In this document: in pieces, positions 32,668 to 64,000 of the stretch
Layout of the letters: each line of letters starts with the position of its first letter
Position numbering within the stretch: position 1 is the first letter of the stretch
Origin: Escherichia phage UGJNEcP3
DNA length: 64,000 nt
Sequence record: OV876907
Strand: one strand, 5' to 3'
Translations under genes and position numbers: made by a program
Notes under the pieces: generated by a model
What the model was told of the DNA's origin: nothing
Seen by the model: the letters and a program-made list of their open reading frames with translations, nothing else
Databases searched by the model: none

Positions 32668-33282
32668 TCAGTAAGAAAGAACGGAAAGATTCCAAATGGT
32701 GTAATTATTCCATTTAGGATTTCTCTCAATAGAGTCTACGCGCAGCGTAGTTCCCGCAGGGAACATCATCTCATCTTCATCATTAATTAATTGTAAGTTT
32801 GCTACACGTGTAGATTCAGGAAATGCGCCTGGGAACTCTTCAGGGGGCGCAGCACATAACATTTTAAAGATTTCTTCCTGATAATTGTACACAAATGGTG
32901 CATCATTAATACAAAAGATATTAAATGTGCCGTAGAAGTTATAAGATGCGAAATTCCTTGCCACGTTGAAGTCTTTAGAGAAGCTCATCACGCGGTCGAA
33001 TTCAATTACCGCACCTACACACATTGTGGACTCTAGATACCTCATAGTCTTTTTAGATATGCCGCGATAGAGCTTATCAGGCACTACAGAAGTCAGGTTC
33101 TTACGAATAATTTTGTTCAGAGTTTCCTGGATAGAATCAGGTTTATTTTCCATACACTGCCAGAGCGTGCTCTGTTCTAAATCAGAATACACCTCATCAA
33201 TTTCTATCTGAGTATTCTCACGGAAATCATCGCATTTGACATTGTTGATAAATTCTGCTAATTTATAGCTTGGATATAACAT
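32668..33282 (-). CDS. Mod-type mono-ADP-ribosyltransferase (ModA/ModB family)
   Basis: 204 aa; R-S-E-type motifs: YRG, SFS, E-x-E-like EDEMMFPAG; tandem with a paralog. Confidence 0.75.
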   Translation of the reverse strand: MLYPSYKLAEFINNVKCDDFRENTQIEIDEVYSDLEQSTLWQCMENKPDSIQETLNKIIRKNLTSVVPDKLYRGISKKTMRYLESTMCVGAVIEFDRVMSFSKDFNVARNFASYNFYGTFNIFCINDAPFVYNYQEEIFKMLCAAPPEEFPGAFPESTRVANLQLINDEDEMMFPAGTTLRVDSIERNPKWNNYTIWNLSVLSY

Positions 33283-33299
33283 ATTATTCTCCTCAGTTG

Positions 33300-33340
33300 A
33301 TAGAAAGATAGTACCACAAGCCTCCTTGCCTGTAAACTAA
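33300..33340 (-). promoter_or_regulatory. early promoter
   Basis: GTTTAC(33332-33337), 18 bp, gTGgTACTAT, CTTTCTATCAACTGAGGAG. Confidence 0.5.
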
Positions 33341-33906
33341 AAATCCAACATTTTTAAATGAATTATTTTGTACTCGATTTCGTATGGATCCCTTTTGACG
33401 GTTTCGATTGCAACAATCTCAAATCGCGATAGACTAGAGACCATGAACTCGCATTCAGTTTCAACCATATCATAGAGGTCGATACGAGATTCATCTATTT
33501 CAAGCTCATCCACATTCCCTGCAAGAACAAGGTCGATAGCATGATTGTAGTAGTCGAAAATGAACGGTGCATTCCTGAGACTTAAAATGGTTTTGGTTCC
33601 ATACTCCCATGCCCCTGCGAACTGACGAGCCTGAGAGTATTGTGTACTAAAAGAAGTAACTCGACCAGGAGACCATTGACACCCTACTGAAAGGAGCTCT
33701 AATTGCTCAAGTTCTCTGGGGGTAATCCCGCGATACAACTCTACTGGAACCGCTGAAGTAACATGCTTGCGAACCAGTTTGTCGAGGTCGTAATGGAAGT
33801 TAGGGTCCTTTTTAGCGTCCAGACATTTTTCTAAAAGATTCTGTTCGTGTTTTGAGAATTTGGAATTGATTCGGTCTTGATAAAGACATTTTTGTTCGAT
33901 GTTCAT
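33337..33906 (-). CDS. Mod-type mono-ADP-ribosyltransferase (ModA/ModB family), paralog
   Basis: 189 aa; YRG, TSFS, ECEFMV motifs. Confidence 0.75.
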   Translation of the reverse strand: MNIEQKCLYQDRINSKFSKHEQNLLEKCLDAKKDPNFHYDLDKLVRKHVTSAVPVELYRGITPRELEQLELLSVGCQWSPGRVTSFSTQYSQARQFAGAWEYGTKTILSLRNAPFIFDYYNHAIDLVLAGNVDELEIDESRIDLYDMVETECEFMVSSLSRFEIVAIETVKRDPYEIEYKIIHLKMLDF

Positions 33907-36144: not shown

Positions 36145-36666
36145 TTAATAACCACGGTCCTGACGAGCAAAGTTCTCGGCATTTTTCAGATAATACAGTT
36201 TAAAGATTTCTTCTGCAGTAAGTCCAAGACCCTGGAACATATTCAGAACAAAGTGCAGAATATCAATCATTTCGAATTTAATTTCGAGTTGGTCTTCAGG
36301 AGACAACTCGTCGATACGACGATTACGGAATTCAGCATGCTGAGCTTTCCAAGGCTTCCACACACTAGAGGCTGCTTTTTCACCGTTGGACATACCGCCA
36401 AGAGAAGTCAGCAGTTCACGGAATTCATCGTCAATATAATCTTTCTGGTTGCGAAGCCAATCGACGACTTGACCTGCGGTAGCCAGTTCATCAGGATTAG
36501 AGTTGAATTCTGATTTTTCGGTAGCCAGGCGAACCTGTAAAGATTTCTGCATATCAAGCATAACTTGCAGAGGGTCTTTATCTTCATGAATCAGAGCATT
36601 AAAATAAGCTTCCTCAGCTTTATCAACACCAGAAATCAAACCACTACATTCGTTAAAAAATGCCAT
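36145..36666 (-). CDS. 56: dCTPase/dUTPase (MazG-like) gp56
   Basis: 173 aa; size, position (between soc and 61) and helical NTP-pyrophosphatase character. Confidence 0.8.
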   Translation of the reverse strand: MAFFNECSGLISGVDKAEEAYFNALIHEDKDPLQVMLDMQKSLQVRLATEKSEFNSNPDELATAGQVVDWLRNQKDYIDDEFRELLTSLGGMSNGEKAASSVWKPWKAQHAEFRNRRIDELSPEDQLEIKFEMIDILHFVLNMFQGLGLTAEEIFKLYYLKNAENFARQDRGY

Positions 36667-36670
36667 TATA

Positions 36671-37327
36671 TTATTTCCTATTAAAGTTTTCTATCATTCG
36701 TCGATAACAAATATCAGGATATCCATTATCAACAGCTATTTTATTAAATTTGGTGCGTTTAGGTTTATTATTGTAAACCCATAATTCATAAAGCATATCG
36801 TAACTATTCCATATTTCTCCACGCCTAGGATTTGGCAAACCATATCGAGGGGAATCTTTACCACTAAATCTTCCTTTTCTAGCTTTACTCATATTGGCCT
36901 TGGCTTCATCAGATATAATTTTATCTTTATGAGCCAGGCGCATTTTGGCTTTAGTTTCTTCAGGAGTTTTCATCCCTCTAATCCAGGAAGGTTTACCAAA
37001 CATCGGGTTATTTTTTCCCGAAAATGCTTTAGCGTTATTTTCTCTTAACGTGGCTATAGTTCTACTAGTTAATTTAACTCCTTTATTATATCTCATTAAA
37101 TTAACAGCATAATGTAGACCTTTTACTTCGGGATATATTTTTGTTAAAAGCCTATGAGCTACAAAGTGTTCTCTTGGCAATAAAGCAACTAAATTGTTTT
37201 TATCATCAGAACCATTCATACATCTAGGTATAACATGGTGTTCTTCCGTATAATACGATAAAGACCGCTTAGAACCTCTTAATTTTCCTTTAGATATTAA
37301 TTCCTGGTATATTTTTTCGTAATTCAT
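36671..37327 (-). CDS. HNH homing endonuclease with NUMOD3-like repeats
   Basis: 218 aa; HNH core EEHHVIPRCMNGSDDKNNLVALLPREHFVAH; repeated GKNNPMFGK / GKDSPRYG modules; between 56 and 61. Confidence 0.8.
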   Translation of the reverse strand: MNYEKIYQELISKGKLRGSKRSLSYYTEEHHVIPRCMNGSDDKNNLVALLPREHFVAHRLLTKIYPEVKGLHYAVNLMRYNKGVKLTSRTIATLRENNAKAFSGKNNPMFGKPSWIRGMKTPEETKAKMRLAHKDKIISDEAKANMSKARKGRFSGKDSPRYGLPNPRRGEIWNSYDMLYELWVYNNKPKRTKFNKIAVDNGYPDICYRRMIENFNRK

Positions 37328-42848: not shown

Positions 42849-43162
42849 CTCTTAGATTTAATTTTATCCAGTTCTTCTTGTATTTGCATTGTAACACATT
42901 TTTCTACATGAAGCGCTAGCTCTTCTTTTCGGTCTTCGGAAGGTGTTCCGAAATCAACCGACACTTTTCCATCTTTCTCAATAACAATATTCATCACATA
43001 AACGATGTGAGCAGTGCCATCGGGTAAAGTAAGCATAATTTCCTGCTTAACAGAACCCATTGACTTACGGATTATATCTAATGATTTCTCATAATAACGA
43101 GGGTCACTAGGACCCTCTTCGGTATCTTTAACAAAATTATCTAAATCAGATAAATCAGTCAT
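42833..43162 (-). CDS. 40: gp40-position protein (head vertex assembly chaperone in T4)
   Basis: 109 aa between 41 and uvsX as T4 gene 40; not sequence-verified. Confidence 0.55.
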   Translation of the reverse strand: MTDLSDLDNFVKDTEEGPSDPRYYEKSLDIIRKSMGSVKQEIMLTLPDGTAHIVYVMNIVIEKDGKVSVDFGTPSEDRKEELALHVEKCVTMQIQEELDKIKSKRWWKW

Positions 43163-44327
43163 CTAAATCCATCTCTTCTAAATCGTTTTCGATATCAGCA
43201 GCGCTTTGGGTATTTCCACCTAATTTAACAGCAACGTTCTTAGAGACGCGAGAGTTAATAAGGTCGTTAACCGCATCGTCAACTTCTTTAATAGAATTAA
43301 TTGCACCGAGCTTATACTTATTCTCGATTGCTTCACGGAACGGAGCATGTTTAAACAGCGGTCCCCAGAACTCAACGCAATCGGTAGCTTTAGCACGCCA
43401 TGCTTTTTCTTCTTGAACCATTTCACCTGTGGTTTCGTCAAGGAATGCACGATTATACCAGCCAGCTTTAGGTTTCACGACAAAGCCGATATCAGTAGCC
43501 ATTTCAAGCAATCCACTGAATGGGTCGATACCACCTTCGAAGTTAACGGTGATAGGGAACGTTGATTTCTCTTTAACCGTACGAGATTTCTCGGCCTTCA
43601 GTGTGAAGTCATAACCTGTGAGCTCGGTACCATCTTTAACCTGACGTTTAGAGATAAAGAATACGGTAGAAGCAGAGTACAGAATACCAGTACCACCACC
43701 CATAATCTCTTTAGGATACATTCCACCAATTTCCATAGCCGTGTGGTTAATTGCTACACAAGGAATATCCTTGATGGTCAGATAAGGCGTTACGATACGG
43801 AACAGAGATTTCAGTGACTTAGCACGAGTCATATCACCTACAACTTTCTCGTTCAAAGCATCTTCGGTTTCTTTCTTAGAAGCAGTGTTACCAATAGAGT
43901 CGATAAAGATAATAACCTTTTCGCCACGAGTAATTTCTTCTAACTGGTTGGTCATATCAACTTTAAGCTGTTCGACTGACTGGATTGGGGTATGAACCAC
44001 ACGTTCCAAATCAACACCCATCGAACGGAAATAAGATTCTGAAGCACCAAACTCAGAGTCATAGAACAAACAAATTGCGTCTGGATATTTCTTCATATAT
44101 GCCGCAACCATGGTAAGTCCAAACAACGTTTTAAAGTGCTTAGATGGAGCAGCAAAGATTGTCAAACCTGATTGTAAGCCTGCATTCAACGCACCACCCA
44201 ATGCAATATTCAGCATAGGGATACGAGTAGGAACTTCGTCACGACCATTAAACAATTTAGATTTGGTCAGGTCGGCAGTCATTTTAGAAGTAGAAGCTTT
44301 AATCAAACGGGATTTTAAATCAGACAT
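43155..44327 (-). CDS. uvsX: UvsX recombinase (RecA/Rad51 family)
   Basis: 390 aa; near-collinear with T4 UvsX as recalled (MSDLKSRLIKASTSK..., YDSEFG, EKSRTVKEKS, WGPLFKH). Confidence 0.92.
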   Translation of the reverse strand: MSDLKSRLIKASTSKMTADLTKSKLFNGRDEVPTRIPMLNIALGGALNAGLQSGLTIFAAPSKHFKTLFGLTMVAAYMKKYPDAICLFYDSEFGASESYFRSMGVDLERVVHTPIQSVEQLKVDMTNQLEEITRGEKVIIFIDSIGNTASKKETEDALNEKVVGDMTRAKSLKSLFRIVTPYLTIKDIPCVAINHTAMEIGGMYPKEIMGGGTGILYSASTVFFISKRQVKDGTELTGYDFTLKAEKSRTVKEKSTFPITVNFEGGIDPFSGLLEMATDIGFVVKPKAGWYNRAFLDETTGEMVQEEKAWRAKATDCVEFWGPLFKHAPFREAIENKYKLGAINSIKEVDDAVNDLINSRVSKNVAVKLGGNTQSAADIENDLEEMDLDD

Positions 44328-44365
44328 TATATTTTTCCATAGGCATCATTATATTTTACTCACGT

Positions 44366-44400
44366 TTTAAGATAGGGTAATTATATCACTTCACATTTAC
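44366..44400 (-). promoter_or_regulatory. promoter-like element upstream of uvsX
   Basis: minus-sense gTGaTATAAT then TACCCTATCTTAAAAC box; no canonical GTTTAC -35. Confidence 0.4.
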
Positions 44401-44404
44401 AGCG

Positions 44405-45298
44405 TTAAAGGACCACGTCCTCATAACTTGGCATTTCGTGCTCAGAATGGATATGGGCACCGAAATAAATGAATTCAGCTAGACCAGGATGGAATACTAA
44501 ACCAGGATTCTCGTGATAAATGATATGAGGTCTTGATTTCAGAATCTGATAATATTCAACCTTACTAGGTTTGAATTTAATAATCTCTACATCAGGACGA
44601 TAGTCTTCACGTTTAAATGAATCATTCGGGTCGGTGATATAAAGGCGAGAACCTTCAGCTGCAGCTTGGTCTACAACTCTTTCGAATTGATAACATTTAT
44701 CAGAGATACGGAATGGATGGAAAATACCATCAATTTTAATAGGCGCTAGACCTTCAGAGTAACGCTCAATTACTGCGGGATTAATTACCTTTTGGTCTAC
44801 AAAAATCTTATCAGAGGACGCACCTCGTGACACCAGGACGTCTTTCTGGCATTGATTCAGGACTGTAGTATAAATCGAACGTTCAACTGAGGACACGTCG
44901 GTATCAATAAACTCGTCGATATAATAACGAGGAACTTCAGGGTCCATTGTAATGTTAAAGTTGAATTGTACAGTCTGAGTGCCATCATAACCTGTGATAT
45001 CGGTTACTAATCCTGAGCAGTCATAGTATTCGATTAACGAATCAACAACGAACTCGTTTTCAGACCAAAAATGTTTACGAGTTTCATAAGCATTTTCTTT
45101 ATACCAAAGCGGTACAAAATTCAGTTCAGGAAATAATTCAATGCATTCTTTGATATCGCTCGAATTTCTAGGATAAGCCAGATAATCACCTGGGCAAGCA
45201 CGGTTTAAATGGAGTTGAAAATTACCGTCCTTAAGGACGGCATATTCACCTGTTTCGTAACTACGCATACTGAAAATAGGAACGATAAACAGACTCAT
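44405..45298 (-). CDS. hypothetical 297-aa protein in the beta-glucosyltransferase locus (candidate DNA sugar transferase)
   Basis: occupies T4 beta-gt position between uvsX and 42-like gene; sequence does not resemble T4 beta-gt; no motif recognised. Confidence 0.6.
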   Translation of the reverse strand: MSLFIVPIFSMRSYETGEYAVLKDGNFQLHLNRACPGDYLAYPRNSSDIKECIELFPELNFVPLWYKENAYETRKHFWSENEFVVDSLIEYYDCSGLVTDITGYDGTQTVQFNFNITMDPEVPRYYIDEFIDTDVSSVERSIYTTVLNQCQKDVLVSRGASSDKIFVDQKVINPAVIERYSEGLAPIKIDGIFHPFRISDKCYQFERVVDQAAAEGSRLYITDPNDSFKREDYRPDVEIIKFKPSKVEYYQILKSRPHIIYHENPGLVFHPGLAEFIYFGAHIHSEHEMPSYEDVVL

Positions 45299-45993
45299 TT
45301 CAGGAATCCTCGAACATAGTCAAAATCACGTTCAAATACATGTGCACTAACCATAGTATGGGAATACGTACCCAGACCAACACCACACTGTTCAGCAATA
45401 AAGGCCATCAGTTTACCCTGCAGATAGAAATCCAGCTGCATAACGATAGCACAGTTCTGTGAACGCATATGAGTGTGTGCATACAGACGTCCATCACGAA
45501 TATAATATGTCACCGAATCGGTACAAGGATATTCTAAGGATTCGTCAGAATCAAGGAGGGCTTGGTCTTGTTCTTGGAGAATCTGGAACACAACTCTTCT
45601 TGAGTTAGGCTTCTCTTTAAGCTCTTTAAGTAAGGCTGGGAGTTGGGCCACAATTCGAGGTCCATAGAAAGTGTTGAAGTTTGCAGGCAATACGTCACTT
45701 TTCGGCTTATCAATGAACTTAGCAACATTAGGGTATTCCTTAAATGCTTCGGCGGCGTCAGTACCACCGGAAATCATAAACTTCCAGAAAGATTCGGCAT
45801 AATCATAGTTGATACGATTAATACGAGGGTCGGTGAATTTATAGGTGCTTGCATCCAGAACTTCAACTGAAGCCGAACCAATTTCATAACAACGACCGAT
45901 ACGAGAATCAACTGCAAACTGTGGAGCTTCCAGGATTTCTTCGTTCATTTGTTTAAATGCATTTTCAAAACTAACAGCGGTAATGTGTTTCAT
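45295..45993 (-). CDS. 42: thymidylate-synthase-family pyrimidine hydroxymethylase (gene 42-like)
   Basis: 232 aa; SRR arginine motif, catalytic-Cys block YPCTDSVTYYIRD, MRSQN...LD with Asp at the gp42 cytosine-specificity position, C-terminal SAHVF. Confidence 0.65.
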   Translation of the reverse strand: MKHITAVSFENAFKQMNEEILEAPQFAVDSRIGRCYEIGSASVEVLDASTYKFTDPRINRINYDYAESFWKFMISGGTDAAEAFKEYPNVAKFIDKPKSDVLPANFNTFYGPRIVAQLPALLKELKEKPNSRRVVFQILQEQDQALLDSDESLEYPCTDSVTYYIRDGRLYAHTHMRSQNCAIVMQLDFYLQGKLMAFIAEQCGVGLGTYSHTMVSAHVFERDFDYVRGFLK

Positions 45994-46526
45994 TTATTCA
46001 CCTCATAATTAATGTATTCATTAAGACGTTTTAATTCTACCATATCGACGTTAAGCAAGTTATTATGGCCGTCGTGATTTAAGATTTTAAACACGTTTTC
46101 AAAACATGTTTCATATTGGCGGATAGTTAGGTTGAACTCATCTTTAGTCAGTTTAATGAGGTCATCTTCAAAGTCTTTATCCAACGGATTACGGGTTAAA
46201 ATAACCTCAATGATATTGAATTCTTTTTTGAAATCAATCCAATCTGCTAGTTCTACATAAGGGTCCATTTCACCACGAAGGAATCCCGAGTAAACAATAT
46301 TACTAGGATAACCACGGTCTAGGATGTAAACGAAATTAGGGTCTAAAAACTTATACAACGTCTCGACTAAAGCCTTGTCATTATCAGTTCCTAACGAAAT
46401 ACATTTACCATTAATCTTTTTAGGAAAATCAATAAGACGATATTTCTTATCAGATAAAAGGGTTTCGATTAAAGTAGACTTCCCGGAATTATCCGGGCCG
46501 TCTATAACAATGATTTTTGGATTCAT
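45990..46526 (-). CDS. P-loop nucleotide/nucleoside kinase
   Basis: 178 aa; Walker A IVIDGPDNSGKSTL at N-terminus (dNK/TMK-like); unlike T4 gp1. Confidence 0.65.
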   Translation of the reverse strand: MNPKIIVIDGPDNSGKSTLIETLLSDKKYRLIDFPKKINGKCISLGTDNDKALVETLYKFLDPNFVYILDRGYPSNIVYSGFLRGEMDPYVELADWIDFKKEFNIIEVILTRNPLDKDFEDDLIKLTKDEFNLTIRQYETCFENVFKILNHDGHNNLLNVDMVELKRLNEYINYEVNK

Positions 46527-46897
46527 GGATGATAGGCCTTATAACTATCAAGAGTTCCTTCGCGAACCATTTCTTTAAAGTGGTCAGGACGAATTGCTCG
46601 GTCATCGATGATAAAAGTATAACTCGGCTTGTGTGTAAGCAAATTGTGATATTTCAATCCAATTTTTTCAAGGTTCTTAACCAATGCAGGAACTACTTCA
46701 ACCAAGATTCGGCCTGGGCCGCATGAAGTCATACCACGGGCAGTGAACAATGTAATCTCATGACCTTCATCGTACAGCTTATTAATCATGGACACCATTT
46801 CGGTGTCCGGTTTAAAGTTTTCATAATCACGGTCATCTTGCCAGTGAGTAATGGTATTATCGATGTCAAAGCACAAATGCATTAAATTTTCTTCCAT
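46523..46897 (-). CDS. HAD-superfamily phosphatase
   Basis: 124 aa; motif I FDIDNTIT (DxDxT), motif II TARG. Confidence 0.65.
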   Translation of the reverse strand: MEENLMHLCFDIDNTITHWQDDRDYENFKPDTEMVSMINKLYDEGHEITLFTARGMTSCGPGRILVEVVPALVKNLEKIGLKYHNLLTHKPSYTFIIDDRAIRPDHFKEMVREGTLDSYKAYHP

Positions 46898-48555
46898 TGT
46901 TTGTGGAGTTCAGTAGAACCTGTAGGTTTATATTTTACACCAGTTTCCTGGTCAAGCAAAACCCACTTATCAGGGCATCGAGTGATAATTTGGGCCGTAA
47001 TAGGGTCACGAACTTCATCGACAAATTCACCTGTAATAAGCTTACGCTTACGAGGATGCCGCTTCAGCAGCACACTCAGTTGATATAGACCGTTGTAATA
47101 AGCGCCCAGAGCTTTCAGAGGGTTATTTTTAAAGTAACCTGCCAACGCCATCCAGATAACAGCAATCCAGAGCTTGTGCTTAAATGTACACATTGGAATA
47201 TCATCTAAAGGCATAACCTTTTCAATATCAACGAATACTCGAGTTCCATTACGAGTTAAGCCACCCCATAGAGGGTCAGAGTTAAATTTGTCATAACCAT
47301 CGATAGAATAAAGCACCTTAGCTTCATCATAAATCGCAGGGCCTTTAGAACTATTACCAAAATAACCGCGTGGGTCGATGATTTTAATATCACCTTCGTC
47401 CGACAGCATAATATTACTGTAGTGCGGGTCGCCGTGAATAAGTTGGTACGGTTCTTTATGTTCAGACAGAATTTCTAGTGCATGACGAAGAAGTTTTTCT
47501 GGGTCGCCTACCTTAAAGTCATTGACATGGGTAATGCCCTGTGGAGCAAAGCCTTCAATCAATCCAGCAATAGAAGCATTACGAATAAGGACCTTGTCCA
47601 ATACTTCTTTCTTAACATCGGAATACCATTGCTCATCGGATGGATTATCGATAGTTCCACCAAATGAACGTAATGCACTAATGACCTTATAAACCATGAG
47701 GACTTTAGTTTCTTTAGACATAAACCGATAGGCATCTGCCATGGTGCGACCAAAGATACGTTCCATTTTAATGAATTCACCTGGAGCAAAGTCTACAATG
47801 CTCGGAACAAATTCAGAATCAATAGAATTATACCAATTGATTTCTTTAGATTGGATTTCTTTACCTAATTCGTTGGTAGGTACTTTAATAGCCAGATTCT
47901 CAGTGAACTCTAATTTATTAAATTCACGGTTAATTTCAGAATCTTCATGGGCCTTAGCCAGTTTCAATTTGTCACCGACATCAACTACAAAGTCCAGCTT
48001 ACGTTCGGTCAAATGGACCATCGAATCTAGGTTATCAGCAAGGTCTTCGCCATAATTAGAACGGTTGAAGCCTGTCCAATTAGCCACCTGATACAAACCA
48101 ACCACACCACCGCCAGTACCAATTTCACGCAAGTACGGTTCTTCAAATGTAAAACGACAGTCAGTCCCGTAGGTATAGCAATAGTCGTTATCCCACTCAA
48201 CTTTATGACCCTCAGGAATGATGTCACACCAGTTAAACAAGACGTTATGGCCAATGATATCTTCAGCAATGCAATCGATAGCATGAGCTGAACCATTAGC
48301 CACATCTACGTTACGAATAGTGAATTTAGGCTTATCACTATTAATCATGTTAATGGATTTAATATAGCCTTTAACGAGGTCGTTAAATTTGCTGTGAATA
48401 ACCAGAATAATTTCATCTGATTGGTTACTATACAAATCATACAAATGTTTTAATACAGTATGTTGTTTGTAGTTAACCAATACCTTCGGGATTTCGTTAG
48501 TAATTGGATACAACCGTGAGCCAAGACCCGCGCCTAAAATAACAACCTTTTTCAT
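46882..48555 (-). CDS. bifunctional sugar-1-phosphate nucleotidyltransferase / APH-fold kinase
   Basis: 557 aa from ATG 48553-48555 (GAGGAA SD); N-terminal ILGAGLGSRLYPIT..PKVLV (RmlA/GlmU-type); C-terminal LIHGDPHYSNIML + IIDPRGYFG (APH/ChoK-type). Confidence 0.75.
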   Translation of the reverse strand: MKKVVILGAGLGSRLYPITNEIPKVLVNYKQHTVLKHLYDLYSNQSDEIILVIHSKFNDLVKGYIKSINMINSDKPKFTIRNVDVANGSAHAIDCIAEDIIGHNVLFNWCDIIPEGHKVEWDNDYCYTYGTDCRFTFEEPYLREIGTGGGVVGLYQVANWTGFNRSNYGEDLADNLDSMVHLTERKLDFVVDVGDKLKLAKAHEDSEINREFNKLEFTENLAIKVPTNELGKEIQSKEINWYNSIDSEFVPSIVDFAPGEFIKMERIFGRTMADAYRFMSKETKVLMVYKVISALRSFGGTIDNPSDEQWYSDVKKEVLDKVLIRNASIAGLIEGFAPQGITHVNDFKVGDPEKLLRHALEILSEHKEPYQLIHGDPHYSNIMLSDEGDIKIIDPRGYFGNSSKGPAIYDEAKVLYSIDGYDKFNSDPLWGGLTRNGTRVFVDIEKVMPLDDIPMCTFKHKLWIAVIWMALAGYFKNNPLKALGAYYNGLYQLSVLLKRHPRKRKLITGEFVDEVRDPITAQIITRCPDKWVLLDQETGVKYKPTGSTELHKQWKKI

Positions 48556-48615
48556 TATCTGTTCCTCAAGTGAATGTAGGTACATTATACACTATTTTTA
48601 ATAAATTGGTATTGC

Positions 48616-49116
48616 TTAAATCTTATCTTTACCGATTTCAATACACTGTTCTATTGCCGCCGGTACTTTGGTCTTGAGCTTATCGATTTGTTTCTTATAA
48701 TCACGAGCTTTACCGAAGCTCTCGGTTTCGAGCATTTCGTAATAACGAGCCTCGTGGATGGAAATCTGTAGATTGATATGGTTTACGCACATCGCATACA
48801 GTTTCTGCTTTTTGTACAAATCATCTTGGCGCTTCATTTCTGCCTGGTGTTTGGCTAGTACCGCTTCACGCTTAGACTCTTGTTCACGTTGGAATTCGAT
48901 TTCCCTTTGAGCATATTTTGCACAGTTATTACCACATTGATTATTAGCTCGGGTATACACAAGTCCAGAACCGGCACGGAATTTCATTTCGCCATCGAAT
49001 TGTTTCTGTTCAGCTGCGATACGAGCTTTACCAACTTCATCGGCTGAAACTGCATCACCATATTGGACCGCACAACCTGATAGGAGCATACTCATTGCGA
49101 TAATTAACTTTTTCAT
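48616..49116 (-). CDS. lipoprotein with coiled-coil-like body (166 aa)
   Basis: MKKLIIAMSMLLSGCAV signal + lipobox; charged helical remainder; GAGGA SD. Confidence 0.6.
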   Translation of the reverse strand: MKKLIIAMSMLLSGCAVQYGDAVSADEVGKARIAAEQKQFDGEMKFRAGSGLVYTRANNQCGNNCAKYAQREIEFQREQESKREAVLAKHQAEMKRQDDLYKKQKLYAMCVNHINLQISIHEARYYEMLETESFGKARDYKKQIDKLKTKVPAAIEQCIEIGKDKI

Positions 49117-49123
49117 AATATCC

Positions 49124-49261
49124 TCAATTAAAACAGTTATACTTAATTTGTGCTATAAGAATAATCCATCCTATGATTAATGTCGGAATCATTGGCGGAA
49201 TTGCCACTGCCCAATAAACGGTAAAGGCAGCCATTATAAGAAATAAAATAATTATCTTCAT
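49124..49261 (-). CDS. 45-aa membrane micro-protein (imm.1-like)
   Basis: ATG overlaps imm-like stop (ATGA); hydrophobic MKIIILFLIMAAFTVYWAVAIPPMIPTLIIGWIILIAQ. Confidence 0.4.
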   Translation of the reverse strand: MKIIILFLIMAAFTVYWAVAIPPMIPTLIIGWIILIAQIKYNCFN

Positions 49262-49494
49262 TGTTTAACGATAATGATTTGTGCGGTTGATTTACGTTCA
49301 GCGACGATAGCCCAGATTAAAGCCACTACCCAACCAATCATCGTCCATCCTAACAGGAGATTAAGGAAGAAGATTCCGACATTGTTACGAGTGCCTCGCA
49401 GAAGAGCTAGAATCCATGGTAAGAAGTAAGCGATGAACATCATAACCAGAGAACCGAATCCTAAAACACCAGCACTAACGATTAAAGCTTCCAT
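49258..49494 (-). CDS. imm: Imm-like superinfection-immunity membrane protein
   Basis: 78 aa with two TM helices; directly downstream of gene 43 as T4 imm; early promoter upstream. Confidence 0.6.
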   Translation of the reverse strand: MEALIVSAGVLGFGSLVMMFIAYFLPWILALLRGTRNNVGIFFLNLLLGWTMIGWVVALIWAIVAERKSTAQIIIVKQ

Positions 49495-49519
49495 TGTAAT
49501 TTCCTCTTAAGTAGTTGTT

Positions 49520-49559
49520 AGGAAGGATAATACCACGTTCCATGTGGTATGTAAACACT
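49520..49559 (-). promoter_or_regulatory. early promoter for imm-like gene
   Basis: GTTTAC(49551-49556), 18 bp, gTGgTATTAT, CCTTCCTAACAACTAC box. Confidence 0.5.
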
Positions 49560-52270
49560 TAAAAGTCAAACATGTCAAATAATGTTGCTTTTTTCTCGTA
49601 GTCGATTTTAGCAGACTCGGTGAAACCGGTAAGAGGTTTGATAAAGGTCTTTTGGAACAATACGTTGTAGTCCATCCAACGGAGGACTTGGTCACGAATC
49701 TGAACTGGAAGTTCAATACCTGATGGCCATGCCATACAAGCTTCACCGAACGGGTTGCCTTCTTTAAGTGGAAGTACATATACCTTTTCACCGTCGACGA
49801 TACGTGGCATAGTCAAATCACCAGCAGAAGCACGCATGTAAGCTAAGCAACCTTTGATGTGATACGGGCATTTAGAACCAGGGAATCCACCTTCATTATA
49901 TTTCTCGATGTTGTTAGCACTGGATACTGCTGCAATGCTTACATAGTTTAGTTCGTTAAATTCCTTATTAAACTGTTTGAAATATTCTTGCAAAGAGGCC
50001 TCGCCTTCCTGAAGCATACGACGGATACATTCTTTCAGAGCTTTCTGAACTGCTTTAGGTGTACTTGATTTCTGAGTTTCGAGACCCATGATTTTCAAGT
50101 GTGGTTCAGCATAACGAGTACCTTCCATGTCCCAAACGTTCAGTGCATAACGTTTCTTGCCTGTCCAGAATCCACCAAGACCTTTAGAACCAAGTGGAGG
50201 TCCTGCGATAGCTTCTCGGTCCATGAACATCAAGTGCTGTTTGTTGTTCATGTATTCACACATCTCACGGAAGCCTGCATCAATAGCAGGTTCCATACGT
50301 TCACGTGCAAATTTATCTAAGAAGTCGACCCAGTGGTTAGTATCACGGAATTTTTCTTCGCCAACTTTATTGATGATGGCATCTGCCTTAACATAAATGG
50401 AGTCAGTATCACCATAGAGCACGAACTTCTGGTTTTCAGTCTTGCACACTCTATTCAGATATTCGTTAACCTTACGTTCAATCCATTGGAGGGCCATTTG
50501 ACCAAACAGTGTGATTGCAGTTGCGTTCCTGAGGTCATAATAACGGAACCATACGTTACCAAGTGCACCATAAAGGGAGTTGATAAGCAACTTACGGTTA
50601 ATCTGAGCAGTGTTACCTGCAACTTCAGTGAGCTCGGCTTTCTTCAACATTTCTCTTAAAGAAGGCCCTGACAGTGCTTTAATCTGGGCTTTGATTTCGT
50701 CAGAGAAGTCAAAACGATAATCGATATCTAGTGGACTATCAACTGAGAGATTAGGATTTTCCAATGCTTCTTTAATTAACTCACCATTACGTTGAGCTGC
50801 AAGCATGTAACCTTTATGTTCTTTACGCTGCAAGAATACCTTGGTGATTTCTGTCGGAATCACACCTTCACGGTCTTTATAATACATCATGCCGTTAGGA
50901 GAGCAACTGTAGGTGTCGCTAGGACGCTGAGCAGTTCCGGCAATATATTCATGTATCGGTGCGTTGGCGAATGTCCCTGCGATGGTCTCTGGGCTTATAT
51001 TCACTTGCCGAATGATACTCGGGTACAGAGATGTAAGGTCAAAACTCATTACATATTTGTAAGCGTTAGGAATAGGTTCCTTAACGAAAGCACCAGGATA
51101 AGGTTGGACCACGTGTGAACGACCCTGTGGAATTACCTTGCCTTGTTCTTTAAGACTATTAAAGATAATAGCGTCCCAAGTCTTAATTGGACTGAACACC
51201 GACTGAATCTGCATCTTGGCATAATAACCCATGTCCAAACTCAGAAGAATGAACTGACGTTTCATATCAATCTGCACTACACGATATACGTCGATAATGT
51301 TATAGGAAATATATCGTTGGTGGTTCGTCTCACGTAACTTAGAGATTGGACCATCATATTTCAACTTACCTACTTTCAATTCATATTCAGAAACATAATC
51401 CAGAGAATAAGAAGGCTGGTTGGTAAAGCTGAATTTTTTATACAGGTCGATATAATCCAGAACAGAGATACCGAACAGTGTAATAATTTCACGAGCACCG
51501 TACATGTTCTCAATAACTTTAACACGAGTTTTACGATGCGGGCTTAATCGCTTAGCAGTGTTCTCACCGAACAGATTTTTCAGACGGTTATAAACGTACG
51601 GCACGTCAAATGACTCAACGTTCCACCCAGTCAAAATCACAGGAGTTTTCTGTTGCCAGAAATTCAGGTACTCAAGCATCATTTCTTCTTCAGAATTAAA
51701 CGAAAGATAAACGATTTTGTCAATGATTTCCTGTGGAACTTCGTCACCACCTTCGTCTTGGAGTTTCTCAGCGATTTTAATCGACCACTCTTCAACAGTA
51801 CCATAAGGCGAAACTAAAAGGTCGAATACATAGAATTTATCGTCAATCGAGTCGTAGTGGGTAATGGCATCGATAGGATGTTTAGCCTGAGCTGGTTCAG
51901 GGAATCCATCAGGAGATGTTACCTCGATGTCGAAGTTAGCAATACGAATCTTAGAAGAATCATATTTGATTTCTTTACGATAGGTATCAGACAAATAGGC
52001 TAATTTATAGTCGTCCATACCCAGGGCTTCGAGACCCATATCGTCCATACGTTTCATCCATTGGGATGCATCACGCATAGAGTCGAATTCTTTCTTAACA
52101 CAACCCTTACCATAGATATCAATGTATTTTACGGCTTGCTCTGGATTGGCATGCATAAACATTGTAGGCTTGTATGGAACTTCACGACTACGTTCGTTAC
52201 CATTTTTATCGATGTAACGTTCGAGAATATTATCACCGATTTGTTCGACTGTCAAATAGAATTCTTGCAT
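49559..52270 (-). CDS. 43: DNA polymerase gp43 (family B, with 3'-5' exonuclease)
   Basis: 903 aa from ATG 52268-52270 (AAGGAAA SD; track start 52330 is TTG); Exo I FDIEV, motif A DLTSLYPSI, motif C YGDTDS; N-terminus closely resembles RB69 gp43 (memory). Confidence 0.93.
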   Translation of the reverse strand: MQEFYLTVEQIGDNILERYIDKNGNERSREVPYKPTMFMHANPEQAVKYIDIYGKGCVKKEFDSMRDASQWMKRMDDMGLEALGMDDYKLAYLSDTYRKEIKYDSSKIRIANFDIEVTSPDGFPEPAQAKHPIDAITHYDSIDDKFYVFDLLVSPYGTVEEWSIKIAEKLQDEGGDEVPQEIIDKIVYLSFNSEEEMMLEYLNFWQQKTPVILTGWNVESFDVPYVYNRLKNLFGENTAKRLSPHRKTRVKVIENMYGAREIITLFGISVLDYIDLYKKFSFTNQPSYSLDYVSEYELKVGKLKYDGPISKLRETNHQRYISYNIIDVYRVVQIDMKRQFILLSLDMGYYAKMQIQSVFSPIKTWDAIIFNSLKEQGKVIPQGRSHVVQPYPGAFVKEPIPNAYKYVMSFDLTSLYPSIIRQVNISPETIAGTFANAPIHEYIAGTAQRPSDTYSCSPNGMMYYKDREGVIPTEITKVFLQRKEHKGYMLAAQRNGELIKEALENPNLSVDSPLDIDYRFDFSDEIKAQIKALSGPSLREMLKKAELTEVAGNTAQINRKLLINSLYGALGNVWFRYYDLRNATAITLFGQMALQWIERKVNEYLNRVCKTENQKFVLYGDTDSIYVKADAIINKVGEEKFRDTNHWVDFLDKFARERMEPAIDAGFREMCEYMNNKQHLMFMDREAIAGPPLGSKGLGGFWTGKKRYALNVWDMEGTRYAEPHLKIMGLETQKSSTPKAVQKALKECIRRMLQEGEASLQEYFKQFNKEFNELNYVSIAAVSSANNIEKYNEGGFPGSKCPYHIKGCLAYMRASAGDLTMPRIVDGEKVYVLPLKEGNPFGEACMAWPSGIELPVQIRDQVLRWMDYNVLFQKTFIKPLTGFTESAKIDYEKKATLFDMFDF

Positions 52271-63616: not shown

Positions 63617-63980
63617 AATCTTCAATTAAATCTCGGTCATAGCCAAGCTCAATCAAAAGGGATTTGAAGGCAGGAATATTTTCTATTTTCTTATTATCAA
63701 CAAAGATTACAGGATAGCGTATAGCTAAGCTCTTGAAGCCGGCACGTTTGGCCAATGATACTATAAGAGGCTTGTCATATACTGCGCCTGACGGCGTCTG
63801 GTTAATCACAGGATAGAAAGTATGTGGGATAGAAAGGGAATTTAGGAGCGATAGAACTGCAATGCACCCTGGACAGCGCATGACTGCCTCAGGGATACCG
63901 TAAATCTCAATTTTAGTTAACTTTTGGTCCACAGGAAATAACTCCTTGGTAGTCCCAAGTTTTGATAACTTCGTCTTCAT
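63615..63980 (-). CDS. thioredoxin-fold CxxC protein (NrdH/NrdC-like redoxin)
   Basis: 121 aa; beta-strand KIEIYGIP followed by CPGC; region matches T4 nrd accessory genes downstream of 55. Confidence 0.55.
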   Translation of the reverse strand: MKTKLSKLGTTKELFPVDQKLTKIEIYGIPEAVMRCPGCIAVLSLLNSLSIPHTFYPVINQTPSGAVYDKPLIVSLAKRAGFKSLAIRYPVIFVDNKKIENIPAFKSLLIELGYDRDLIED

Positions 63981-64000
63981 TAGTTCCGTATGGGACGTAA

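Follow-up and report, generated by a model that had tools for sequence, protein, structure and literature searches.

The DNA analysed here, 64,000 nucleotides of Escherichia phage UGJNEcP3 (sequence record OV876907; the whole stretch is called the window), carries at positions 45295-45993 on the minus strand an open reading frame (ORF) for a 232-residue protein with a thymidylate synthase (TS) fold. This protein, whose chemistry is our subject, is encoded among minus-strand early genes that follow the T4 order, namely 41, 40, uvsX, a six-gene insert, imm and 43. Its gene occupies the slot that gene 42, which encodes a hydroxymethylase acting on deoxycytidine monophosphate (dCMP), holds in T4. 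The flanks of the cluster are anchored by uvsX (43155-44327, minus strand; 89.5% identity to RB69 UvsX) and by the gene for the gp43 DNA polymerase (annotated as 49559-52270, minus strand, with a TTG-start reading frame reaching 52330; 83.4% to RB69 gp43). From 44300 to 48700 the window is identical (100%) to Escherichia phage UGJNEcP4 (OV877765.1; Straboviridae, Tevenvirinae, Dhakavirus) and shows 94-96% identity to the Dhakaviruses Bp7, QL01, WG01, MX01, IME08 and others. The window is circularly permuted with respect to OV877765.1 (window position = record position + 19362), and that record annotates the 232-residue ORF identically.

The protein matches the Pfam family Thymidylat_synt (PF00303) with an E-value of 4.8e-14 (52.6 bits against a cut-off of 24.3), over residues 114-229 only. 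An earlier note, made from the raw sequence, had listed the hallmarks of the TS family (SRR, a catalytic Cys in PCT, and an MRSxN block followed by Asp), and all of them can be located, at S131-R132-R133, P156-C157-T158, M176-R177-S178-Q179-N180 and D188. The note had also judged the protein to be far less T4-like than its neighbors, and the measured identities bear this out: it shares 25% with T4 gp42 over 159 residues by pairwise BLASTP and 23.5% over 217 residues when the ORFs of the window are compared with a set of T4 proteins, whereas gp43, UvsX, gp59 and Ndd share 60.7%, 66.6%, 76.0% and 61.7%, respectively, with their T4 counterparts. That set comparison matched 46 ORFs, and among the 40 orthologous pairs ranked (those with at least 60% coverage), the gp42-like protein has the lowest identity of all (median 58.1%; next lowest, 32.6%). 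Because T4 gp42 itself has 22.6% identity to E. coli ThyA, the 232-residue protein is no nearer to gp42 (24-25%) than gp42 is to ThyA, which we count against orthology to gp42. The note had allowed that the divergence might be only apparent, which is wrong: it is real.

The close relatives of this protein lie elsewhere. There is no T4-type gene 42 in phage RB69, in which the corresponding slot is held by ORF048c (gp48), and the window protein is 79% identical to RB69 gp48 (182/231 residues; E = 1e-145). It is 79.2% identical to the crystallised AfhB of phage HY126 (the sequence of PDB entry 9IQU), which agrees with RB69 gp48 at 228 of 231 positions and differs at three; it is 80.5% identical to a protein of Serratia phage 92A1 and 71% identical to one of Shewanella phage Thanatos-2. 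In the comparison with 92A1, the 80.5% of this protein exceeds the values for UvsX (64%) and gp43 (69%), so that against its true relatives it ranks among the best-conserved proteins. The alignments to T4, RB69 and ThyA that the earlier note had proposed therefore give 24-25% for T4 gp42, 18% for ThyA and 79% for the gene in the RB69 slot, and the last of these values does not refute the divergence, because RB69 ORF048c/gp48 is the same non-gp42 enzyme.

Searches of structural data lead to the same family. When all PDB sequences were queried with phmmer, the best matches were 9IQU, 9IQC and 9IR2 (E = 1.5e-125), with MilA at E = 2.5e-14 and T4 gp42 (1B5E) at only E = 4.7e-6, among the ordinary thymidylate synthases. 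An AlphaFold2 model built on 42 homologs (predicted local distance difference test, pLDDT, 87.3) superimposes on 9IQC with a template-modelling (TM) score of 0.95 whether normalised to query or target and a root-mean-square deviation of 1.6 Å; 9IQU likewise gives 0.95, and MilA comes next at 0.86. Both phage entries were released on 2025-07-16, 9IQC under the title 'Monooxygenase dependent on riboflavin with dCMP and FAD' and 9IQU as 'phage HY126 dCMP hydroxylase-AfhB with substrate dCMP'. RB69 gp48, HY126 AfhB (9IQC, 9IQU, 9IR2) and gp80 of Acinetobacter phage DLP3 also agree with the window protein in length class (232 residues against 234-238) and in their signature residues. In every aspect of sequence, structure and context that we tested, the protein behaves as a member of the AfhB/RB69 gp48 family, and its enzymatic activity is predicted from that membership. 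We conclude that it is very probably the Dhakavirus ortholog of 5-hydroxy-dCMP synthase (dCMP 5-hydroxylase), the enzyme that would start a pathway to arabinosyl-5-hydroxycytosine DNA.

The activity of the family has been established in other phages. RB69 gp48 and DLP3 gp80, when co-expressed with a phage deoxynucleoside monophosphate (dNMP) kinase, give rise to 5-hydroxydeoxycytidine (5hodC) in E. coli DNA (Lee et al., NAR 2026, PMC13326640). According to the same authors, the oxygen of the product derives from 18O2 and an FMN-like flavin co-purifies with the enzyme: orthologs convert dCMP and O2, with flavin bound, to 5-hydroxy-dCMP, which is taken up by the phage dNMP kinase, and arabinosyltransferases then act on the DNA. 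They identify Asn in place of Asp169 (E. coli ThyA numbering) as diagnostic, nine further natural D169N homologs having all yielded 5hodC, and by comparative genomics they list Dhakaviruses among the predicted carriers of the pathway (PMC13326640). As cited there, a crystal structure of the HY126 enzyme with flavin and an in vitro reconstitution are due to He et al. (Nat Chem Biol 2026), and arabinosyl-hydroxy-cytosine was described in Serratia and E. coli phages by Mahler et al. (Cell Host Microbe 2025). Work of 2025-26 has thus already described the family and its diagnostic residue and predicted that Dhakaviruses have a member of it.

To place the active-site residues, we aligned the window protein, RB69 gp48 and 20 database homologs down to 50% identity (together, 22 family members) with T4 gp42 and E. 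coli ThyA. The nucleophile C146 of ThyA corresponds to C157 in the window protein (codon at 45523-45525, minus strand, as for the other codons given here) and to C148 in gp42; N177, which specifies uracil in ThyA, is replaced by D188 (45430-45432; D179 in gp42), and L143 by E154 (45532-45534; D145 in gp42), each of these being the same in 22/22 family members. At these positions the family and gp42 resemble each other, but at the folate site they part: D169 of ThyA is retained as D171 in gp42 and is N180 (45454-45456) in all 22 family members, W80 is W82 in gp42 and A91 in the window protein (Ala in 19/22), and G173 is G175 in gp42 and V184 throughout the family (22/22). C157, E154, N180 and D188 are also invariant in all 42 members of a larger alignment, while T4 gp42, MilA and ThyA all retain Asp at position 169 (the motif reads MRAND in MilA and MRSQN here). 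The phosphate-binding residues R132/R133 and R177/S178 are conserved, as are Y110 and H218. The earlier note had listed the MRSxN motif without recognising its Asn, which takes the place of the folate-binding Asp169, as the diagnostic residue of the literature. Judged from these alignments, the protein keeps the nucleotide-activating half of a thymidylate synthase together with the Asp that reads cytosine, and the residues that hold the pterin are replaced.

A further feature of the family is a near-invariant loop at residues 96-114 (KPKSDxLPANFNTFYGPRI; window 45652-45708), which has no counterpart in gp42 or ThyA and whose conserved pattern is K96-P97...L102-P103-x-N105-F106-N107...Y110-G111-P112-R113. 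The sole low-confidence part of the AlphaFold2 model falls at residues 91-110 (mean pLDDT 54-55), and the crystal chain of the dCMP-only form has 217 modelled residues against 234 in the complex with FAD, i.e., 17 fewer. Because of these two observations, we suggest that the loop may become ordered over the flavin, as a lid on the binding site or as part of it.

The nearest relatives outside the family mark off what is peculiar to it. MilA (5B6D/5JNH) is the closest solved structure beyond the family and matches it in the Asp that specifies cytosine and in having an acidic residue where ThyA has L143; it differs in sharing only 24-25% identity, in keeping the equivalent of Asp169, in using folate, in preferring a ribonucleotide and in being about 90 residues longer (about 320 residues), and owing to this extra length its target-normalised TM score is only 0.62-0.64. 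T4 gp42 (1B5E) has the TS fold, the catalytic Cys148, Asp179, the acidic L143 position, the genomic slot and an adjacent DNA glycosyltransferase gene on the uvsX side in common with the window protein, but its folate site is built with Asp171 and Trp82 in place of N180 and A91, it lacks the 96-114 loop, and it uses methylene-tetrahydrofolate to make a 5-CH2OH product, whereas the window protein is predicted to use flavin and O2 to make a 5-OH product. ThyA and phage Td resemble it in fold, in the catalytic Cys, in the phosphate-binding Arg pair and Arg-Ser, and in the equivalents of Tyr94 and His207. Relative to E. coli ThyA, to which its overall identity is low, the window protein carries the replacements N177D, D169N, W80A and L143E and is without the C-terminal 40 or so residues.

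If the gene were instead a fast-evolving, true ortholog of T4 gene 42, it would encode a folate-dependent dCMP hydroxymethylase, and the phage DNA would contain 5-hydroxymethylcytosine (hmC), perhaps arabinosylated. The location in the uvsX-43 interval beside a glycosyltransferase gene is what such an ortholog would show, as are the catalytic Cys, the cytosine-specifying Asp and the acidic residue at the L143 position; some database records do call homologs 'dCMP hydroxymethylase', and the older literature assumed hmC for RB69. The shared Cys and Asp are, however, features of the superfamily and of cytosine recognition and not specific to gp42, the original assignment of hmC to RB69 has since been corrected, and the 79%-identical RB69 and HY126 proteins yield 5-hydroxy-dCMP and not 5-hydroxymethyl-dCMP. 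Added to an identity to gp42 of only 24-25%, the substitution of Asn for Asp169 in every family member and of Ala for Trp80 in 19 of 22, at two folate-contacting sites that gp42 keeps, makes this explanation very improbable, and we rejected a diverged or decayed gp42 on the active-site residues. Still less credible, to the point of having almost no probability, is a thymidylate synthase converting dUMP to dTMP, which is how the protein is named in GenBank and RefSeq. The GenBank name arises from PHROG 160 ('thymidylate synthase'), and the PF00303 match points the same way, but that match is limited to residues 114-229, the uracil-specifying Asn177 has become Asp, no thymidylate synthase equivalog of NCBIfam comes near its cut-off (at best 63.1 bits against 174.55), and the genome holds a separate 287-residue td/thyA next to frd. 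A second thymidylate synthase was accordingly rejected on the active-site residues and the curated cut-offs; no curated model yet names the hydroxylase family.

With hydroxylation of dCMP as the favored activity, the other option raised by the earlier note, a different substrate or one-carbon chemistry tied to the neighboring genes, can be divided. A different chemistry and a link to the neighbors both stand; a different substrate in all likelihood does not, since the retained D188 speaks for dCMP. One-carbon chemistry gives way to flavin- and O2-dependent hydroxylation, following Lee et al. (2026) and the PDB titles, and the label 'hydroxymethylase' is a misnomer, the orthologs being enzymes that hydroxylate dCMP. 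What the note did accomplish, from raw sequence, was to single out the one enzyme of the region whose chemistry departs from that of T4.

Support that is independent of the papers comes from two distant family members (50-56% identity) that we located on metagenome contigs (L010:9497-9991 and L008:5649-6116). One of them is directly downstream of a Flavodoxin_2 gene, of the NAD(P)H-flavin reductase type, and the other shares its block with an FMN_red gene, a gene for a glycosyltransferase and epimerase, hexapeptide and PIG-L sugar genes. Such neighbors fit an enzyme that needs reduced flavin and feeds a glycosylation pathway, and they suggest that some viruses have dedicated flavin reductase partners.

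Taken with the conserved residues, the published activity would allow the following mechanism. Cys157, acting as the TS-type nucleophile, would add to C6 of dCMP, while Asp188 would read and stabilise the N3/N4 face of cytosine; the activated C5 could then attack an oxygen species derived from reduced flavin and O2, and elimination of the Cys would release 5-hydroxy-dCMP. N180 and A91 stand where ThyA has Asp169 and Trp80 of its folate site, and the flavin site is probably formed by the loop at about 96-114. Upstream, gp56 (dCTPase/dUTPase; 36145-36666, minus strand; 94.2% identity to RB69 gp56 and 67.6% to T4 gp56) would by orthology clear dCTP and supply dCMP, and downstream, phosphorylation by the dNMP kinase of the phage and the NDP kinase of the host would bring 5-hydroxy-dCMP to the triphosphate, which the gp43 polymerase would insert in place of dC.

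The remaining steps would fall to genes around the hydroxylase gene. Five genes, from 48585 down to 44405 on the minus strand, form a co-directional string in which neighbors overlap by 1-16 nt. A scan of 44200-49600 for promoters and terminators found 17 promoter-like sites where shuffled sequences give an expectation of 18.2, and 2 terminator-like sites against 3.4, neither count being above chance. The neighbors of the hydroxylase gene are orthologs of RB69 gp45, gp46:47, gp51 and gp52:53, modification genes of the RB69/HY126 type, and they share with RB69 the uvsX-43 neighborhood.

Overlapping the hydroxylase gene by 4 nt is the gene for a 297-residue protein (44405-45298, minus strand), the ortholog of RB69 gp46:47 and a predicted DNA 5-hydroxycytosine arabinosyltransferase 1. 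It is 69% identical to RB69 p047 over residues 1-179 and 63% identical to p046 over residues 184-297, i.e., to the two parts of a split transferase 1, and 45% identical to the 92A1 counterpart; it belongs to PHROG 3891, has no Pfam match, no credible PDB sequence match and no detectable similarity to T4 b-gt or a-gt. The label arabinosyltransferase 1 for RB69 gp46:47 is that of Table 1 of Lee et al. (2026, PMC13326640). On the other side, again with a 4-nt overlap, is the gene for a 178-residue P-loop nucleotide kinase, 'thymidylate kinase-like' (45990-46526, minus strand), a homolog of RB69 gp45 (37% identity to p045; PHROG 761) with only weak N-terminal matches to dCMP/dTMP kinases. Then follows a HAD-family phosphatase (46523-46897, minus strand; the GenBank start is window 46882), the ortholog of AfhF and RB69 gp51, with 61.5% identity to RB69 p051, 66% to the 92A1 protein and a match to the NCBIfam capsule biosynthesis phosphatase (E = 5.5e-14). 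The string begins with a fusion of a sugar-1-phosphate nucleotidyltransferase (N-terminal; Pfam NTP_transferase at residues 13-110) and an APH-type sugar kinase (C-terminal; APH at residues 356-427) at 46882-48585 on the minus strand (GenBank start at window 48555), the ortholog of AfhE and RB69 gp52:53, which is 44% identical to RB69 p053, 41% to p052 and, over its full length, 47% to the 92A1 protein.

The characterised counterparts suggest how these proteins would provide the sugar. AfhE acts as a kinase on arabinose-5-phosphate and also makes UDP-arabinose, and the 5-phosphate is stripped off by AfhF, in the account of He et al. given by Lee et al. (PMC13326640). By analogy, the HAD phosphatase of the window is predicted to convert arabinofuranose-1,5-bisphosphate to arabinofuranose-1-phosphate and the fusion protein to make UDP-arabinofuranose, from which the 297-residue glycosyltransferase would arabinosylate the 5-OH in DNA. 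Since only one transferase was found in the sequence searched, the DNA is probably mono-arabinosylated, the end product being O-arabinosyl-5-hydroxycytosine DNA that would be resistant to restriction.

Compared with that of RB69 and 92A1, the cluster as a whole has fewer genes, in a different order. RB69, which belongs to a different genus, additionally has an isomerase gene, a gene of the Peptidase_U32 family, the small ORF p049 and a second arabinosyltransferase gene, and in RB69 and 92A1 the kinase gene is found across the hydroxylase gene from its place in the window, the RB69 kinase gene adjoining uvsX beyond the transferase. We searched for the additional genes in the window and two further loci (L006 and L007), which together cover about 136 of the 170.6 kb of the genome (the remainder, at 86-120 kb of the record, contains structural genes). 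With tblastn, the RB69 proteins p055 (SIS isomerase), p050 (the U32-family protein), p003 (transferase 2) and p049 gave no match better than E = 0.5 in this sequence. Likewise, when 18 unannotated ORFs from other parts of the genome were scanned with Pfam, none had a SIS domain that would mark an arabinose-5-phosphate isomerase, and no second arabinosyltransferase (RB69 p003/gp3, in the rIIA-39 interval) was found in the window or the two loci.

Several points weigh against our interpretation. The assignment is by orthology, and the searchable literature yielded neither biochemical data nor DNA compositions for a Dhakavirus; we noticed no candidate gene for the supply of reduced flavin in the Dhakavirus cluster; and this cluster differs from those that have been characterised, no isomerase, second transferase or U32-family gene having been found in the sequence searched. 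The kinase (37%) and the AfhE-like protein (41-47%) are, moreover, much less similar to their RB69 and 92A1 counterparts than is the hydroxylase (79-80%). Because of the missing isomerase and transferase and these low identities, the identity and number of the sugars are less certain than hydroxylation itself. The same facts could mean that the hydroxylase is correctly identified but that the Dhakavirus end product differs, through another sugar, partial glycosylation or bare 5-hydroxycytosine (5hoC), and the 5hoC base does carry galactose or glucose in Rhizobium phage RL38J1 (Lee et al. 2026, PMC13326640). We regard a different end product as unlikely, given that the HAD phosphatase (61-66%) and, with 63-69% identity to RB69, transferase 1 are plainly orthologs that share the domain architecture of their counterparts and that Lee et al. 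(2026, PMC13326640) place the Dhakavirus cluster among the arabinosylation clusters. The lack of an isomerase can also be accommodated within an arabinosylation pathway. E. coli itself makes arabinose-5-phosphate, for Kdo synthesis, via KdsD and GutQ, so that a phage isomerase would be dispensable; with none found in the phage, the precursor would come from these host enzymes.

Elsewhere in the genome are cd, alc, denA and the gene 1 dNMP kinase, in addition to the normal td/thyA. A T4 gp42 query found no second match in the 136 kb, and tblastn with T4 a-gt and b-gt gave none; T4 dam and arn queries were also unmatched there. Between genes 56 and 61, where T4 has dam, the window has a 218-residue ORF (36671-37327, minus strand) that is unmatched by T4 Dam or by other T4 and RB69 proteins of the comparison set.

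The U32-family gene of other phages raises the question of oxygen. The U32 enzymes UbiU/V, TrhP and RlhA hydroxylate independently of O2, taking the oxygen from prephenate, and the formation of 5-hydroxycytidine (ho5C2501) in rRNA depends on RlhA. RB69 p050 (L003:26492-27661), encoded beside the dCMP hydroxylase gene, is a 389-residue protein of the Peptidase_U32 family (Pfam E = 7e-11) with no PDB sequence match, and three Cys of the phage protein align with Cys residues of UbiU/UbiV. Phage 92A1 also has a gene for a 389-residue U32-family protein next to afhB (L012:5360-6529), and between the two is wedged a gene for an 85-residue chorismate mutase (Pfam CM_2, E = 4.6e-10; L012:6747-7004); a chorismate mutase is likewise annotated beside the U32 gene in the record of Klebsiella phage PWKp16. 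In all, 222 phage records contain the U32 gene, which adjoins the dCMP hydroxylase gene in RB69, 92A1 and about 220 others, and the hosts listed are nearly all enterobacterial (plus Shewanella); Acinetobacter is absent from the ten commonest host names of these records, and 63 Acinetobacter phage records carry an afhB-like gene.

Neither the U32 gene nor a chorismate mutase gene was found in the 136 kb of the window phage, and tblastn with T4 and RB69 NrdG and NrdD proteins finds nothing there. The genes nrdH (63687-63917) and 49 are only about 0.6 kb apart (window 63687-64000 and L007:1-1040), in an interval where T4 and RB69 hold nrdG and nrdD, and the absence of NrdDG thus co-varies with the missing U32 module. 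It is conceivable, though we hold it doubtful, that the U32 module provides an anaerobic back-up route to cytosine hydroxylation in other phages and that the window phage has only the O2-dependent route. Lacking U32 and chorismate mutase genes, the window phage would then depend on oxygen for its hypermodification and hence for its resistance to restriction. Lee et al. (2026, PMC13326640) label the U32-family protein only as 'sugar or heterocycle reductase' and propose no anaerobic route, and we found no literature linking a U32 protein to anaerobic formation of 5-hydroxycytosine. The data suggest such a route as a lead, not as a result.

A TS-fold enzyme that trades folate for flavin in order to hydroxylate cytosine represents remarkable enzymology, and cytosine hydroxylation underlies a whole class of phage DNAs that are O-glycosylated and escape both restriction and CRISPR, as published in 2025-26 by Mahler, He, Lee and their colleagues. 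What the present analysis adds is practical: public records need renaming, to 5-hydroxy-dCMP synthase, sugar-bisphosphate phosphatase and so on. Besides 'thymidylate synthase' or 'dCMP hydroxymethylase' for the hydroxylase, misleading or uninformative public names in this cluster include 'phosphoheptose isomerase' for the HAD phosphatase, 'thymidylate kinase' for the P-loop kinase and 'hypothetical protein' for both the nucleotidyltransferase/kinase fusion and the transferase. Dhakaviruses sit in phage-therapy collections, and DNA that probably contains arabinosyl-5-hydroxycytosine matters for sequencing, cloning and engineering, and also for predicting sensitivity to type IV restriction (BrxU/GmrSD). 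Their trimmed cluster is, in addition, a natural minimal system for asking which genes suffice for the modification.

Two other features of the window deserve mention. Between the modification cluster and imm is a 166-residue ORF (48616-49116, minus strand) with a lipoprotein-like N-terminus, MKKLIIAMSMLLSGC, which belongs to PHROG 1754 (unknown function) and has no meaningful Pfam match; nothing in the T4 and RB69 sets used for comparison matches it. The genes for the ADP-ribosyltransferase pair ModA/ModB (32668-33906, minus strand) are the next most divergent from T4 after the gp42-like gene, their products having 33-37% identity to the T4 proteins and 58-62% to those of RB69.

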